A DNA stretch of 64,000 bases from a virus (taxonomy: Duplodnaviria; Caudoviricetes): positions 32,001-96,000 of IMG/VR virus record IMGVR_UViG_3300014205_000175; one strand, written 5' to 3'. The notes beneath the pieces were generated by a model. That model was not told the origin of the DNA, did not search any database, and saw only the letters and a list, made by a program, of their open reading frames with translations. Both the position numbers and the translations under genes were made by a program. Below, piece by piece: positions 34,919 through 63,639 of this stretch. How positions within the stretch are numbered: the stretch's first letter is position 1; each line of letters starts with the position of its first letter.

Positions 34919-35485
34919 ATGAACGAGAAACTGCAGGAACTCGCTGATGAATGCCGCCGCAACTTCATGTTCTCAAAGAAAATCGAAGGTGGATACATCG
35001 GACCGAAGGGTGAGTTCATTCCTGTTCCTGCCGGCATTAGGCGCGTCGGCTTCAACTATGCCAATGGCAATGGTGGGTGGAGAATTGATCTAAAGTCAGG
35101 AAATAAAGCAAAAACCCGATTAGAAGTACGAGACTCACCTTTCCATCATGACTACATGGCCTCGTTGCAAGAAGCCCTCCGGCAACTTCATATACTCAAA
35201 CCAGAAGGGTTGTTGAAATCACAAACACGACATGCAGTAAAAGAACACGCTCACAAAAAAATAAAACTAGGAGTCGTCGGCGTTAGGTTCAATACCGCAT
35301 TTTCTCGCGGACATTGCTACCATTCTTTCATCGTAATGTGGGGGAAGAAGCGGAAAACAATACCTATCCCCCGCGACTACACCCAAGCTCAGTTTGATGC
35401 AGGTTTGGAAAAAGCCAAAACCATACGTCAGGAGTTTGAGCGCATCAAGTTGGAGAAGAGTCGCTTTACCACTGACAGTAAATAA
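34919..35485 (+). CDS. 188-aa paralog 1, putative double AP2-like DNA-binding protein
   Basis: Basic. VPAGIRR..GGWRI..RDS..ASLQEA and LGVVGVRF..F..G..AQFDAGLEKAK.IR, i.e. two beta3-alpha modules. Confidence 0.55.
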   Translation: MNEKLQELADECRRNFMFSKKIEGGYIGPKGEFIPVPAGIRRVGFNYANGNGGWRIDLKSGNKAKTRLEVRDSPFHHDYMASLQEALRQLHILKPEGLLKSQTRHAVKEHAHKKIKLGVVGVRFNTAFSRGHCYHSFIVMWGKKRKTIPIPRDYTQAQFDAGLEKAKTIRQEFERIKLEKSRFTTDSK

Positions 35486-35547
35486 TCTTCCGCCATATAC
35501 TAGGGCTAACACTACCGTCAGCCCACTAAATCTAAGGAGCTTCCAAT

Positions 35548-36114
35548 ATGGACAAGGAACTGAAAAAGCTTGCCGCTGAATGCCGTCACAAGTTCATGTT
35601 CTCAAAGAAAATCAAAGGTGGTTACATCGGGCCGAAAGGCGAGTTTATTCCTGTCCCGACAGGCGTCAGACGCAATGGCCGTGACTACGCCAACGCCAAC
35701 GGCGGATGGAGAATCAGCATAAGATCGAAACATAAAACAGAAATCCAGATAGATGTGCGGGATTATTGTTTCCATCACGATTACAAGGCTTCGTTACAAG
35801 AAGCCATTCGACAACTGAGTACTTTCAGACCGGAAGGGTTGCTAAAATCGCTAAAGCTACACACAGAAAAAGAACGCAGTCATAAAAAAATAAAACTAGG
35901 AATCTCTGGTGTTAGGTTCGAAACCTTGGACTGTAAGGGTCGACGTTATTATTATTTCACAGTAACGTGTGGGAAAACACAACGAAGAGTACCTGTCCCT
36001 CGTAACTACACCCAGGCTGAGTTTGATGCAGGTCTGGAAAAAGCCAAAACCATGCGTCAAGAGTTCGAACGTAACAAGATGGAGAAGAACCGTTTTACCG
36101 CTGACCTTAAATAA
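35548..36114 (+). CDS. 188-aa paralog 2, putative double AP2-like protein
   Basis: Clear paralog of 34919..35485. Confidence 0.55.
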   Translation: MDKELKKLAAECRHKFMFSKKIKGGYIGPKGEFIPVPTGVRRNGRDYANANGGWRISIRSKHKTEIQIDVRDYCFHHDYKASLQEAIRQLSTFRPEGLLKSLKLHTEKERSHKKIKLGISGVRFETLDCKGRRYYYFTVTCGKTQRRVPVPRNYTQAEFDAGLEKAKTMRQEFERNKMEKNRFTADLK

Positions 36115-36177
36115 TCGCTCGTTGTACATTCGGGTTAGCACTATCGCTAACCCGTTAATTTCTAAGGAACTACCACT

Positions 36178-36744
36178 ATGGACGAGAAACTGAAAAAACT
36201 GGCCGACGAATGCCGGTTAAATCGCATGTTTTCAAAGAAGACTGACGGGGGCTATTTTGGCCCGCGTGGAGAATTTATCCGTGTTCCTACCGGCATTGCG
36301 AGAATTGGTCGCAACTACGCTGAGAAATCCGGCGGGTGGAAAATTCACATCTTGAAAGCAGGCCAGCCTAAAATTATTATTCCGGTCAGGGATTCTCAAT
36401 TCAGTGGTGACTACATGGCTTCGCTACGTAAAGCCATTAAACAGTTGTCCGAACTCAAGCCCGACGGGGTGTTGCTTTCTAAAAAAGGTGTCAAGAAAAC
36501 CGAGGCTTCTAATAAACAGGTAAAGCTAGGAATGGCTGGCATCAGATTCAATCGTATCACTCGTAACGGAAAATCCTATTACTCATTTTCAGCGCTATGC
36601 GGGGATAAAAAGAAAACAGTCTGCATTCCTCCAGATTACACACCTGCGCAATTCGATGAAGGTTTAGCGAAAGTCAAAACTCTTCGAAGCGAATTTGAGC
36701 ATCAGCACACCCAAAACCGTCTTTTTACTGGCGGTAGTGTGTAA
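36178..36744 (+). CDS. 188-aa paralog 3, putative double AP2-like protein
   Basis: Clear paralog (GP.GEFI.VPTGI, YT.AQFD). Confidence 0.55.
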   Translation: MDEKLKKLADECRLNRMFSKKTDGGYFGPRGEFIRVPTGIARIGRNYAEKSGGWKIHILKAGQPKIIIPVRDSQFSGDYMASLRKAIKQLSELKPDGVLLSKKGVKKTEASNKQVKLGMAGIRFNRITRNGKSYYSFSALCGDKKKTVCIPPDYTPAQFDEGLAKVKTLRSEFEHQHTQNRLFTGGSV

Positions 36745-36791
36745 CATATTTGAGCTAGTAATATCGTCAGTCCCCTATAGGAGCTTCTACC

Positions 36792-37358
36792 GTGAAACAA
36801 GACTTACAGAAGATCGCCGACGAGTGTCGCGAGAAACGCTGCTTCTCCAAGAAAATCGGGAAAGGATGTTTTGGTCCTAAAGGTGAATTTATTCCACTAC
36901 CTACGGGTATTAGTCGCAAAGGAAAAAATTTCATTTACTCAGGTAGCTGGATAGTCAGAACACATACAAGAAACTTGCCTCCGATCATATTCACATTCCT
37001 AGACTCTGATGTTCATTGTGATTACATGGTATCTTTGAGCAGAGCCATCGAGAAACTAAAAGAACTCAAGAATAATAAAGTGTTCGTGACAGGCAACCAC
37101 CTTAATCAACACGAAAGTAAAAGCAAGAAACTGAAATTTGATATCGTAGGAGTTAGTTTTCACCTCCATAAAAGACGAATGTGTAGACTGCCGGTTCCTA
37201 CTTTTACCGCGTCGTGCGGTTACAAACGGAAAAAATTCACACTGCCTTGTATCTACACCCAGGCACAGTTCGATTCCAAACTGAAAGAAGCTATAGCCTG
37301 GCGTAAGGAGATGGAAAAACAGCGGTTGCAGGAAGTCGGGTTCGATAAGTTCAAATAA
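36792..37358 (+). CDS. 188-aa paralog 4, putative double AP2-like protein
   Basis: Most diverged copy; GPKGEFIPLPTGI and YTQAQFD retained. Confidence 0.55.
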   Translation: MKQDLQKIADECREKRCFSKKIGKGCFGPKGEFIPLPTGISRKGKNFIYSGSWIVRTHTRNLPPIIFTFLDSDVHCDYMVSLSRAIEKLKELKNNKVFVTGNHLNQHESKSKKLKFDIVGVSFHLHKRRMCRLPVPTFTASCGYKRKKFTLPCIYTQAQFDSKLKEAIAWRKEMEKQRLQEVGFDKFK

Positions 37359-59464: not shown

Positions 59465-59949
59465 CGAGCGATGAACTTCATGAAGCTCTCGCGGCTATAG
59501 AAGACGCGATCGGCGTGTTCTTGCGCATAGTCGGAAAGCACACCACAGGGACGCGTGATACGACCATGCATCTCTAGCACTACATAGCGTTTCTTCGCTT
59601 GAGCGTCTAGTGCGATACGGAGTTCATCGAATGCACGCGAAGGCTGCTGGGTAATCGTGTCGGTATCATTCACGTAGACGACTGAGTCCTCAGGTTCTTT
59701 ATCTAACTGTTGATGCACCATCAGAATCGCTGCTGACTCGACTTGGTTGGTTTCATTACTTAGACGTGTAGTGTTCTCTCCTAGTACTTTGAGTAGTGCT
59801 TCAGCATAGACTGAGGAGAGTGGGCCGGTGATGGTTACGGTACTGGCAGCAGTATCAGTAGCTGGTGCGTTTTCAGTAGGTGTACCGATCTGGGTGACTT
59901 GAGCTTGATTGTCAACTGGTTGGTATTTGTTCAGATCTAGTTTAGACAT
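59461..59949 (-). CDS. Hypothetical (possibly head) protein
   Basis: 162 aa coupled to the next gene; GPLSSVYAEAL motif. Confidence 0.6.
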   Translation of the reverse strand: MSKLDLNKYQPVDNQAQVTQIGTPTENAPATDTAASTVTITGPLSSVYAEALLKVLGENTTRLSNETNQVESAAILMVHQQLDKEPEDSVVYVNDTDTITQQPSRAFDELRIALDAQAKKRYVVLEMHGRITRPCGVLSDYAQEHADRVFYSRESFMKFIAR

Positions 59950-60466
59950 GTTCGTTTCCCCGTGAGTAGTGTGGCAGCCAGAAGATTTGTTGTTGTATGG
60001 GTTTTTACTTATCTGACATCCCCCCAGTCCCCCCGATTAGGGGGGACAATAGGGTATGGGCTTAGTGGCTGATATAGCAATGGCGGTAGAGGTTATATTT
60101 CTTAAAAAACCCTTGCGCTGGAGGGATGTTTTTCGTCAGAAAAAAACATCCCGATCCTGCTCAACGTGTGTAAAAAAGCCTGATGGCAACAGTAGCGTGC
60201 GTAAAAATTCATGGGGGGCTTCGCCCCCCTCTCCCCCCCATCTAAATACCTAGTTACGTTCGCTGAAGCTCACTGAGTTACTATGTCCAAAGTATCAGGG
60301 TAGTGCGGTATTTTTTTCACAGCGTTTGAAGCCAGTGTAAAATTTACAAGACTCTGCTGCATACTGTGGTACGCTTATTTGGGTGTATGCTGTTTTTTCT
60401 TTTTACTTTAGCGTTAGTACGGGTTTAGCTCCATGTAAAACCGGCTGCCTGATCTGGGTACGAACC

Positions 60467-60481
60467 CATATTTAATATCTG
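60467..60481 (+). promoter_or_regulatory. Promoter-like motif variant CATATTTAATATCTG upstream of phuZ
   Basis: Motif variant in a long intergenic region. Confidence 0.5.
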
Positions 60482-60561
60482 GTAGTCGCATAGAGAAAAA
60501 CCAGTTAGCGAATATCAAGTGGTAGTAACGTTCGGTTATATTTTAATAAGGAGATTGTAAC

Positions 60562-61527
60562 GTGGCGATGACGATGAAGCTGTTGGGTTGTGGTGGTGCA
60601 GGGATTAATATCGTTAAAAAGTTCCTGGGTAAGTCTGGCGAAGGGTTTGCTGATCTCGATATCTGCATGCTCGATACGTCGCGTTCGAATATGCCTAAGG
60701 ATATCAACGAAGACAACATCTATCTCTTCGATGGTCTGGATGGTAGCGGGAAGCTGCGTGCGAGTAACTACTCAGTCATCAGTGAGCGGGCACGTGAGAT
60801 CGTGCAACGGGTCAAACCTGGTGATGTGACGGTGGTCGTGCATTCAGCCAGTGGTGGCAGTGGGAGCGTTTTAGCTCCAGTCCTGATCAGTGAGCTTCTG
60901 AAGCGCGAGGTGATGGTGATGGTCGTGGCGGTAGGTTCGTCTGACAGCCGCATCGAAGTCGAGAACACTATCAAGACGCTCAAGAGCTATGCGATCATCA
61001 GCCAGAAGAACGAACGGCCGATCAACATGATCTACGCTGAGAACACGCGCGAGATGGGTCGCGGGGCAGTCGACAAAGCGATCGAGACCAACATCATCCT
61101 CGCGTCGCTCTTTTTCTCTGGACAGAACCGTGAACTCGATAAGAGCGATCTACGCAACTTTCTCGACTATCACAAAGTAACGAGTTTTGCGCCGAAACTT
61201 ACGATGGTTGATTTCTGTAGCGGTGGCGTGTCATTGGAACGCGATCAAGCGCTCGTGAGTGCAGTGAGTCTGACCGATGAGAACGCATCGACGGCGATTG
61301 ATCAGCCGCTCGAATATCAGGCTACTGGCTTTATTACGACTGCTGTTAAAGAAGCAGTAAAAGTAGACATGCCTATTCATATGGTCACCGTTGCGAACTA
61401 CTTCGGTAATGTCATCGAACGCCTGGAAAAACAACTGCGTGTCATCGATGAAGCTCGTTCTGCTGTGATCGAAAAATCCATCGTGTCGAATCAGGAAAAC
61501 TACACCGATACTGGTTTGGTTCTCTAA
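60562..61527 (+). CDS. phuZ: PhuZ phage tubulin
   Basis: GCGGAGINI, DTSRSN, GSGKLR and SASGGSGS tubulin/FtsZ motifs; 321 aa. Confidence 0.93.
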   Translation: MAMTMKLLGCGGAGINIVKKFLGKSGEGFADLDICMLDTSRSNMPKDINEDNIYLFDGLDGSGKLRASNYSVISERAREIVQRVKPGDVTVVVHSASGGSGSVLAPVLISELLKREVMVMVVAVGSSDSRIEVENTIKTLKSYAIISQKNERPINMIYAENTREMGRGAVDKAIETNIILASLFFSGQNRELDKSDLRNFLDYHKVTSFAPKLTMVDFCSGGVSLERDQALVSAVSLTDENASTAIDQPLEYQATGFITTAVKEAVKVDMPIHMVTVANYFGNVIERLEKQLRVIDEARSAVIEKSIVSNQENYTDTGLVL

Positions 61528-61599
61528 GCGGCTAAGTCACGAGAGGGGACGTCTAGGGACGCCCCTTTTAAATAACGTGTTATACGGGAATAACTAATA

Positions 61600-61806
61600 A
61601 TGAACCTTCAATATCCAGACACACATACGAAGTTCCGCCACGGTGAACGTGTGAAGAAGACGAAGGGATCACAGTGGCATGGTACTGTGGTCGGATGGTA
61701 TAGCACTAGCCTTACCCCTGAGGGCTATGCCGTCGAGAGTGCCAGTGAGAAAGGTAGTGTGCAGATTTACCCGGCTACAGCGTTAGAGCTGTGGCCCACT
61801 AACTAA
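61600..61806 (+). CDS. dfrB: DfrB-family (R67-type) dihydrofolate reductase homolog
   Basis: [52 protein letters not shown] is collinear with the R67 DHFR core, including VQIY. Confidence 0.88.
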
Positions 61807-61848
61807 CGGTAGATTGTCGGGGGCTTTGGAGCCCTCGGTTTTTGAAAG

Positions 61849-62142
61849 GTGTTAATGATGACAGATACATCGGCAACCGTGTTCAACTTTCCTGTGCCTA
61901 CTCCGACTGTGCGCCCTTACCAGTTGGTTGCTACGAGTGAGCTACGCTATGCGTGGCGGCGTTCGTGCGATGTGCCGTGGTATTTAAGCTGGATGAAAAG
62001 CCACGAGAAAGTGTTGCAGCGAAAGTATCTTGAATGTCATGACAGCGACGCAGAACCTAATGCAGTGTGGATAGATATCCCGACAGTCGAAGAAGAACCG
62101 TCGATTATGCTAACGGCGTTAGGGTATCAACGTGAATGTTAG
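61849..62142 (+). CDS. Hypothetical protein
   Basis: 97-aa ORF in a co-directional run. Confidence 0.5.
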   Translation: MLMMTDTSATVFNFPVPTPTVRPYQLVATSELRYAWRRSCDVPWYLSWMKSHEKVLQRKYLECHDSDAEPNAVWIDIPTVEEEPSIMLTALGYQREC

Positions 62143-62446
62143 TAGTTTGCATGAGCTGGTAACACGTGCACTGATGTTAGATCAAGCCGTACCTCGCTCT
62201 AGAGGTATAGGTGAAGTAGAATCATATATTTATAGCCACGCTGAACTCGACGATTACTATATCGGTCTACGATTACAGTCGGATGCATGGGAATTTAATA
62301 TCCTGGGCTATGGCTGTAAGTGTCTATACGGTTTACGCTATGAGCCGCAACGAGGATGGCTGACTACGGGTCATGCTCATCATGTACTCCCAGAATGGAA
62401 AAAGATTTTAGTGAACACTTTTGCTATCATAAAAGAGAATATGTGA
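62132..62446 (+). CDS. Hypothetical protein
   Basis: 104-aa ORF followed by a hairpin at about 62452-62492. Confidence 0.5.
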   Translation: MNVSSLHELVTRALMLDQAVPRSRGIGEVESYIYSHAELDDYYIGLRLQSDAWEFNILGYGCKCLYGLRYEPQRGWLTTGHAHHVLPEWKKILVNTFAIIKENM

Positions 62447-62590
62447 TGCCACCTCTAGCTCGCCTGCCTGTGAGGGTGGGGCGAGCTAGAGGGGTTGTGT
62501 GCCTTTGCGATAGTCGACACTATGGCTATCCTTCTTCCATAGTAAAAAACCTCGCTACGCTTCATCTAATGGCTTCTAGGGGTATTTAAC

Positions 62591-62977
62591 ATGAGATATT
62601 TAGAAACGTTTTACATGTTGGACATCCGTGACATCTGGGTGTACCTAGAGAACGAGCTTTTACCGATCTGCCGTAAGTATAATGCGCGACTCTCGTTCGA
62701 CATAGCTTGTGAAGCGGTGATCGCTGAGGCTCTACAGAGGGTAGGGATCAGTCTGACAGGTAAGCATTGTTTCGATAATATCTGTCGCTACGATGTAACC
62801 GAATGTGGCGACCCTGACCTAGAACCGATTAAATGGTGGGTAACTCAGCAGCTCCAGCGCGCTCTAACAGCGCATCAGGTTTGTTTGAGTTATGCCGAAC
62901 GCGTTAAATATCTCGCTAGCCGCACTGCTTTGGTGCTGGTGGTGGTGAGGGACATGGATAAAAGGGAGTTAGGGTAG
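62591..62977 (+). CDS. Hypothetical protein
   Basis: 128 aa with AGGGG RBS. Confidence 0.6.
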   Translation: MRYLETFYMLDIRDIWVYLENELLPICRKYNARLSFDIACEAVIAEALQRVGISLTGKHCFDNICRYDVTECGDPDLEPIKWWVTQQLQRALTAHQVCLSYAERVKYLASRTALVLVVVRDMDKRELG

Positions 62978-62979
62978 AG

Positions 62980-63639
62980 ATGAAAAATACAGACACGGTA
63001 GATCTAAATGAGCTTTTGCAACCTACCGAGATGACTCTCATCGACATGCTACCTTATGTTGTCGAGTGGGATGATGATCCGTATCTGAACGCGTTGGTCG
63101 CACCTCCGGTCGGCATTTATCTGCCGGGCTCGGTTGAACCAGTCCTGCACTCAAACGGCAAATATTACCCGCAGTCGAAACTCGGTGAAGAAGCTCACCT
63201 CATCACCGATCTCACGCAGATCTATAACGTTACTGAACCGATCGTCGACAAGAACGGCATCGTCCTCACCACGCCCGATAAACTCAGACGTCTTAAGCGC
63301 TATATCACTACGCAGCCACAAGTGCCAGCGATGGCAATCAAAGTAGCTTGCAGTATCGCGATTGCCTTTATCAACAATCTATCCATCTATACGCGCAGCC
63401 CTCGTAACACCTATCACCTGAGTAGGCTCGTGTCGGATCAGCACTTTGATCTTATCGCGACCGAAGCCTACGAGAATCTGCTCGATGAGATGCTATTATC
63501 CCTAAACGCGTTCGTAGGTAAGGATCGACATCATATCTATTTTACGCGTCTCAAAGGTACGAGCTTGGTGGTAGAGAAGACGATCGACTTTCGCGTGTAT
63601 GACTGGTATCGCATGCAACAATCTAAGGATCATGATTAA
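62980..63639 (+). CDS. Conserved phiKZ-like hypothetical protein
   Basis: 219 aa coupled to neighbours; C-terminal DFRVYDW motif. Confidence 0.6.
   Translation: MKNTDTVDLNELLQPTEMTLIDMLPYVVEWDDDPYLNALVAPPVGIYLPGSVEPVLHSNGKYYPQSKLGEEAHLITDLTQIYNVTEPIVDKNGIVLTTPDKLRRLKRYITTQPQVPAMAIKVACSIAIAFINNLSIYTRSPRNTYHLSRLVSDQHFDLIATEAYENLLDEMLLSLNAFVGKDRHHIYFTRLKGTSLVVEKTIDFRVYDWYRMQQSKDHD

Follow-up and report, generated by a model that had tools for sequence, protein, structure and literature searches.

Why should a nucleus-forming jumbo phage carry, directly behind its tubulin gene, a short reading frame resembling the R67-type (type B, DfrB) dihydrofolate reductases (DHFRs), and what would its product do during infection? 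The window analysed here, a stretch of 64,000 nucleotides, corresponds to bases 32001-96000 of a 202,826-bp IMG/VR record that CheckV estimates to be about 75% complete. A preliminary description of this DNA had proposed a phage-encoded DfrB enzyme after phuZ, with a role in folate and dTTP supply and a possible significance as a reservoir of dfrB resistance genes. We examined the gene and its surroundings, the metabolic genes of the record and its relatives, and the wider DfrB family.

The reading frame after phuZ and its product

The frame opens with an ATG and runs intact through 68 codons, and an in-frame TAA three codons upstream of this ATG excludes a longer N-terminus. Its product matched the Pfam family PF06442 (DHFR_2) with 83.1 bits (E 1.2e-23; gathering cut-off 25) over profile positions 21-75 of 78, as well as PHROG 31682 (1.3e-21). 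In a phmmer search of the PDB, query residues 9-63 aligned without a gap to chain residues 5-59 of R67 DHFR (1vie, E 5.4e-19), a match that is, judged from the alignment, far beyond chance. The AlphaFold2 model, built on 69 homologues with a mean pLDDT of 91, displayed the five strands of an SH3-like barrel protomer. Its best seven Foldseek matches in the PDB were all R67 DHFR (including 6nxz and 1vie; TM by target 0.92-0.97, rmsd 0.6-0.7 A), followed by generic SH3/Tudor-like domains with E above 0.01. The 68-aa R67-type ORF of the preliminary description was thereby confirmed by sequence, profile, PDB match and fold. Furthermore, an identical product is encoded on a second contig of 205 kb. 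Against the NCBIfam model NF000331 (trim_DfrB), the product scored 91.2 bits, under the allele-level cut-off of 137; by these profile scores it is a DfrB family homologue and no catalogued resistance allele.

In R67 numbering, in which residue i of the phage protein corresponds to residue i+12, the product keeps K32, W38, W45, Y46, S59, G64, S65, V66, Q67, I68, Y69 and P70. The positive residue 32 and the VQIY motif used as criteria by Lemay-St-Denis et al. (2025, PMC12486381) are found as K20 and V54-Q55-I56-Y57 (R67 V66-Y69), and R31 is changed to Lys within a V-K-K triplet. Alignment of DfrB homologues revealed 24 invariant columns, every one of which is kept in the phage protein, and the residue motifs listed earlier, GSVQIYP among them, are all present. 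The R67 segment E60-A61-H62-P63-G64 reads A-S-E-K-G, with H62 replaced by Glu and P63 by Lys. Loss of the interface His had been pointed out in the preliminary description and holds in the alignment, but most close homologues likewise have Glu62, and the change is no defect.

The features surrounding the gene are collected in Table 1. The upstream ORF shares about 35% identity over 99% of its length with annotated jumbo-phage PhuZ, and 186 phage records match it; dfrB begins 72 nt after its end, so that the placement directly after phuZ was correct. The hairpin between the two genes was missed by a simple hairpin scan because its stem is bulged, and only 30 nt separate its U-run from the dfrB ATG. 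This 30-nt spacer showed no recurring promoter motif, and no sigma-70-like site came up immediately ahead of dfrB; a GGGA about 10 nt 5' of the start is weakly Shine-Dalgarno-like. Transcripts may reach dfrB by read-through, or may start at a phage promoter that these scans did not recognise. An Rfam search of 59900-62700 returned no match. The GC content of dfrB, about 0.53, is inside the local range, and recent transfer was rejected on composition, dfrB showing no anomaly. dfrB is flanked by phuZ, the two hairpins and phage ORFs; neither an attC-like core site nor an integrase was found there, in line with the lack of integron context reported at the outset.

Table 1. Features of the dfrB locus, in window coordinates
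Feature	Coordinates	Strand	Description
phuZ (phage tubulin), conserved upstream neighbour	60562..61527	+	Pfam Tubulin 2.9e-10, TubZ_C_2 weakly
Accessory block of about 1 kb (dfrB, orf97, orf104)	61528..62530	+	Between phuZ and the conserved gene 62591-62977
Terminator-like hairpin and U-run between phuZ and dfrB	61541..61569	+	dG -18.2 kcal/mol, z -2.87 against shuffles
dfrB-like gene, R67-type (type B) DHFR homologue	61600..61806	+	68 aa; VQIY (cluster I); Glu at R67 position 62
Terminator-like hairpin directly 3' of dfrB	61817..61843	+	9-bp stem, UUUUU tail; dG -14.3 kcal/mol, z -1.7, weak alone
orf97	61849..62142	+	97 aa; no Pfam or PHROG match; Atlas leads sub-threshold; absent from G001 (L054)
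orf104	62132..62446	+	104 aa; no Pfam or PHROG match; Atlas leads sub-threshold

The extent of the block carrying dfrB was read from the closest relative, the IMG/VR contig G001, in which only about 150 bp lie between phuZ and the homologues of window ORFs 62591-62977 and 62980-63639. This gap marks window positions ~61528-62530 as an accessory insertion. Its right-hand boundary is given by the leader 5' of gene 62591-62977 (AAAAAACCT...ATCTAATGGCTTCTAG), which is common to the G001 locus (L054). The leader segment 62535-62580 is kept in L054 despite about 60% protein divergence and may be a promoter or leader element. Additionally, a hairpin with a perfect 13-bp stem was observed after orf104, at about 62449-62490. 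At some distance, window positions 34919-37358 hold four successive plus-strand ORFs of exactly 188 aa each, which may be a tandem paralogue array.

Thymidylate synthesis in the phage and its relatives

Among the products of the record are a nuclear shell protein (chimallin, phrog_4795, 1e-84), the beta subunit of a phage RNA polymerase (7e-171), a jumbo-type major head protein and a family B-like DNA polymerase. The combination of chimallin, phage RNA polymerase, jumbo head protein and PhuZ indicates a phiKZ-like, Chimalliviridae-like nucleus-forming jumbo phage. Megablast of the dfrB locus against GenBank phages returned nothing, and the phage has no close GenBank relative in that search.

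A ThyA-type thymidylate synthase of 362 aa (271 bits, Pfam) is encoded at C1:200800-201888 in the coordinates of the record. It passes the TIGR03284 equivalog model (250 vs 108 bits) and keeps the catalytic Cys, the R-S-x-D motif, the dUMP-specifying Asn and the H/Y pair, alongside an insertion of about 100 aa. With the equivalog score and these residues kept, the enzyme should release dihydrofolate. A role of this homologue as a dCMP or dUMP hydroxymethylase was rejected because it passes TIGR03284 and retains the dUMP-specifying Asn and the Y-G-H-x-W-R-N motif. The preliminary description had suggested a search for thyA and folA elsewhere in the genome; besides the canonical ThyA, six-frame searches of the 202,826-bp, ~75% complete record found no FolA (PF00186), ThyX (PF02511), RibD_C (PF01872) or SHMT (PF00464). 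With ThyA present and FolA, ThyX and RibD_C absent from the record, DfrB is the sole candidate reductase for the dihydrofolate made by ThyA, with the reservation that at this completeness folA could sit in the missing part. The two genes are unlinked, dfrB lying at C1:93,600 and thyA at C1:200,800, 107 kb apart. In a separate observation outside the window, the two ends of a 634-aa ORF at C1:133719-135623 (L032) match dCTP deaminase, and its residues 236-314 match an HNH endonuclease; a nucleotide-metabolism gene seems to have been interrupted here by an intein or a homing endonuclease.

Two related jumbo contigs from IMG/VR provide the comparison. G001 (164.6 kb; PhuZ 76% identical) and G002 (120 kb; PhuZ 49% identical) each encode ThyA together with a FolA-type DHFR, and no DfrB was found in either. 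In G002, folA follows thyA immediately. In G001, a stretch of about 3.5 kb that contains folA is flanked by homologues of C1:73943-74251 and 74356-75114, which are adjacent in the present genome; the gene order there shows a slight rearrangement. ThyA and the genes around it keep their synteny between G001 and our record at 60-86% identity, ThyA itself at 60%. As far as gene content and order can tell, this pattern points to non-orthologous displacement of FolA by DfrB, and it makes a folA hidden in the missing quarter of the genome less likely. A further jumbo record, G003 (IMGVR_UViG_3300023174_002543; L108, L143; 367 kb, CheckV 100%), encodes DfrB and ThyA, with no chimallin match and no FolA. 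Overall, FolA was found in none of five large DfrB-bearing viral contigs.

Two further peculiarities were observed in the relatives. The phuZ match in G001 (L054 1673-3669) covers only PhuZ residues 100-321, and a 411-aa HNH/NUMOD-like ORF lies immediately upstream; the gene may be split by a mobile endonuclease or an intron. The thyA of G002 (C1:5945-7381 of that contig; L059/L060) matched as two halves, the stops between them being one TGA, one TAG and two TAA, and the break may be an intron.

Taken with the conserved residues described above, the product is very probably an active R67-type DHFR in the phage thymidylate cycle. We consider it likely that the ORF represents a functional type B DHFR that recycles the dihydrofolate from the phage ThyA, in place of the FolA of its relatives. 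The role in folate and dTTP supply put forward in the preliminary description is thus supported by gene content, namely a canonical ThyA, no FolA, ThyX or RibD_C, and two relatives with FolA instead. Four 68-residue SH3-like protomers would assemble into the DfrB homotetramer, whose central pore would bind NADPH and dihydrofolate through K32 at its mouth and the V66-Q67-I68-Y69 strand lining it. During infection, the enzyme, presumably expressed and acting in the cytoplasm, would turn the dihydrofolate released by ThyA into tetrahydrofolate, and this recycling would maintain the dTMP supply of a genome of roughly 270 kb. The one-carbon unit would have to be reloaded by the host SHMT because the phage has none. 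In such a cycle DfrB would stand in for the FolA-type reductase of related jumbo phages, dfrB itself sitting in a small accessory block inserted after phuZ. As with other DfrB enzymes, an intrinsic insensitivity to trimethoprim is to be expected and would be a by-product of the architecture.

Lemay-St-Denis et al. (PMC12486381) proposed that viral DfrB proteins reduce the dihydrofolate of viral ThyA in genomes lacking FolA, and by this ThyA-positive, FolA-negative, DfrB-positive logic the mechanism put forward here is already published. What is new is the chimallivirus host genome, the contrast between FolA and DfrB in sister phages and the statistics for position 62. The range of DfrB is extended to chimalliviruses. 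In addition, closely related nucleus-forming jumbo phages with the same ThyA and either a FolA-type or an R67-type reductase offer a natural comparison, which supports the recent proposal that the native job of DfrB is folate recycling for viral dTMP synthesis and not drug resistance. The picture of the DfrB family is unchanged by this case, and its value is therefore confirmatory and comparative.

Integron relatives and the interface position 62

Phage DfrB proteins have several precedents. A 2020 report described dfrB genes in viromes (PMC7265639), a 2023 study characterised DfrB homologues from phages (PMC9835603), and eight dfrB genes were counted in lytic phages in 2025 (PMC12466917). We found DfrB homologues in 26 GenBank phage records, each shorter than 150 kb and none from a PhuZ phage; in many of them the gene is already labelled R67 DHFR. 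At least 276 IMG/VR stretches encode a homologue, and a search of 1.84 billion proteins gave 1,240 matching cluster representatives at E up to 1e-10. The statement in the preliminary description that DfrB enzymes are usually integron cassettes is outdated in view of these IMG/VR and protein-cluster counts and of PMC12486381, most homologues being environmental or viral.

An integron relative was nevertheless found. The best matches in a plasmid search came from Pseudomonas megaplasmids, with 73.5% identity across the full 68 residues; DfrB1/2/3/4/6/10, the clinical proteins, share 58-67% identity over the core with the phage protein. In pXM8-2 and pTmex-577K, the gene of the matching protein WP_257792703.1 sits in a class 1 integron cassette that spans 284 bp and has canonical G|TT junctions. 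This cassette was located at L041 5920-6203 (NZ_OR652289.1) and in L042 (NZ_CP143525.1), with the Glu62 DfrB homologue as its only long ORF. This ORF is antisense to the other cassettes of the array, and its stop codon lies inside the neighbouring attC, so that the C-terminal tail depends on the neighbouring cassette. Its different array positions in the two plasmids indicate that the cassette is mobile.

A quick maximum-likelihood tree joined the phage protein, this cassette and a small number of metagenomic proteins in one group (SH-aLRT 84) and set the clinical alleles apart as a clade of their own (SH-aLRT 95); the tree (53 columns, 146 rows) is poorly resolved, and the grouping with the integron cassette is accordingly weak. 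The phylogeny with integron DfrB proteins suggested earlier therefore leaves the phage protein loosely beside a Pseudomonas cassette and apart from the clinical alleles. At the level of sequence, the comparison shows that the phage protein and the cassette share ancestry, which does not imply a phage origin of the cassette, and that the DfrB subfamily of the phage has reached integrons, where it already sits in Pseudomonas. The proposed reservoir of resistance genes is conceivable at most: a cassette of the same subfamily exists in integrons, but its 73.5% identity is too low to suggest that it came from this phage, whose protein lies below the NCBI cut-off (91 vs 137 bits).

These relatives bear on an alternative in which dfrB is cargo selected for trimethoprim resistance, either in transit between phage and integrons, in one direction or the other, or enabling the phage to stay productive in treated hosts. 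The nearest plasmid relative, with 73.5% identity and Glu62, being a class 1 integron cassette of Pseudomonas megaplasmids, and its placement beside the phage protein in the quick tree (SH-aLRT 84), would agree with such cargo, and an effect on fitness has been reported for resistant dfrA genes carried by lytic phages (PMC12466917). However, a divergence of 26% argues against recent exchange, and attC, integrase and transposase are absent nearby, with no compositional anomaly. The protein falls below the NCBI DfrB allele cut-off, and DfrB homologues are common in environmental viral contigs. By analogy with lytic phiKZ-like phages, a phage with chimallin and PhuZ would also be a poor vehicle for stable transfer. 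Moreover, PMC12486381 reports that the DfrB family did not evolve in response to trimethoprim, and the FolA/DfrB swap with relatives accounts for the presence of dfrB without drug selection. Selection as resistance cargo is in our judgement improbable, and a reductase serving the phage thymidylate cycle remains the preferred reading.

The replaced interface residue was followed across the family. In 161 metagenomic, viral and plasmid homologues, a set skewed towards relatives of the phage protein, position 62 is Glu in 119 and His in 42, with nothing else, while K32, W38, S59, S65 and VQIY are invariant or nearly so. Distinct DfrB cores from IMG/VR viral contigs carry Glu62 in 56 of 72 cases and VQIY in all 72. 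Positions 37 and 39, both flanking W38, show the strongest covariation with position 62: Glu62 pairs with Gln37/His39, and His62 pairs with Gln39 and either Glu37 or Ala37. At the dimer-dimer interface positions, the phage protein keeps W38 and S59 and has Glu for H62. Loops L1 and L3 form the dimer-dimer interface of DfrB (PMC12486381), and, given the covariation of 62 with 37/39, we infer that the His/Glu pair has been swapped between the two sides and not lost, a reading of sequence covariation rather than coordinates that draws on two large clades and not on independent events.

Earlier work indicates how much variation this interface accommodates. The interface segments of active DfrB homologues are not conserved (PMC12486381), and an S59A/H62L variant of R67 was reported to be favourable for the tetramer. 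A Vibrio phage DfrB protein (L050) carries E-K at positions 62-63. The Vibrio-phage homologue DfrB-H4, which may differ from the L050 protein, gave resistance up to 600 ug/ml (PMC9835603). In nature, the "essential" interface His62 of textbook R67 is the minority state.

A second alternative, somewhat less probable than resistance cargo and doubtful in our view, holds that the protein is a non-catalytic SH3-like binding module with another role, like some DfrB homologues of clusters III-V. Non-catalytic viral homologues of these clusters, for example in Streptomyces phages, form no tetramer and do not reduce dihydrofolate (PMC12486381); the replacement of the classical interface residue H62 and the unlinked positions of dfrB and thyA would be compatible with such a module. 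The non-catalytic homologues, however, have neither VQIY nor K32, reach only about 22-29% local identity to DfrB1 and occur in ThyX phages (PMC12486381), whereas the phage protein carries all of VQIY, K32 and W38, matches DfrB1/2/3/4/6/10 at 58-67% identity, shows the majority state Glu62 of the VQIY group and comes from a ThyA-positive, ThyX-negative genome. According to the same study (PMC12486381), VQIY occurs in SSN cluster I alone, and no residue is better conserved than K32 among active DfrB members. In addition, 114 of 123 tested homologues predicted to be tetramers conferred trimethoprim resistance, the other nine seeming insoluble or unexpressed. A silent or decaying passenger, in a block insulated by terminators with too little expression, is the least probable alternative and hardly to be expected: the terminator-like hairpin just upstream, the negative promoter searches and the absence of the block from relatives would fit it, but the frame is intact with all family-invariant residues kept, the GC content fits the surroundings, and a phage that encodes ThyA would hardly do without its sole DHFR candidate.

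Beyond the catalytic reading of the gene itself, we tentatively offer a broader proposal, which we regard as possible and speculative. Proteins with Glu62 and Gln37-His39 may form a DfrB lineage of their own, mostly from viruses and the environment, in which the titratable His would be shifted from loop L3 to loop L1 of the dimer-dimer interface, giving a tetramer whose acid-induced dissociation would differ from that of R67 or possibly be absent. This lineage may replace FolA in nucleus-forming jumbo phages, and an inverted, as yet unnumbered cassette may have brought it into clinical class 1 integrons. If this is true, phage-type DfrB proteins would form an unmonitored pool of trimethoprim-insensitive reductases.

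Comparison with known systems

R67 DHFR and the integron cassette proteins DfrB1-DfrB10 (1vie, 2rk1) share with the phage protein the SH3-like fold and K32, W38, W45, Y46, S59, S65, VQIY and P70. They have 78 aa, whereas the phage protein has 68 aa and a shorter disordered N-terminus. Their His62-Pro63 and Ala37/Gln39 contrast with Glu62-Lys63 and Gln37/His39 in the phage protein, and they reside in integrons, unlike the phage dfrB. The closest annotated relative, WP_257792703.1, shares the N-terminal motif Y-P-[DE]-T-H-T-K-F, Glu62 and VQIY; it is encoded in a mobile cassette, whereas the phage gene is without cassette features.

The viral DfrB proteins paired with ThyA (PMC12486381) resemble the present case in their Caudoviricetes genomes, the presence of ThyA, the absence of FolA and the proposed role in dTMP synthesis. 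GenBank examples of viral DfrB include Sinorhizobium phage phiM9, Vibrio phage 1.030.O, Rhizobium phages and Pseudomonas phage PS-1, and Glu62-Lys63 is common to the phage protein, phiM9 and the Vibrio phage. The distance of 107 kb between dfrB and thyA here exceeds the about 20 kb taken as a criterion for such pairs. The present gene belongs to a nucleus-forming jumbo phage (chimallin, PhuZ) with FolA-bearing sister phages, whereas the DfrB-positive GenBank phages are all under 150 kb.

With the FolA-type DHFRs (T4 frd type; G001 and G002), the phage DfrB would share the metabolic step and the ThyA partner. FolA (PF00186) and DfrB (PF06442) are nevertheless unrelated in fold and ancestry, and the position of the reductase gene in the genome differs in G001. 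The phage DfrB would be a tetramer of 68-aa protomers, compared with a single chain of about 160 aa for the monomeric FolA.
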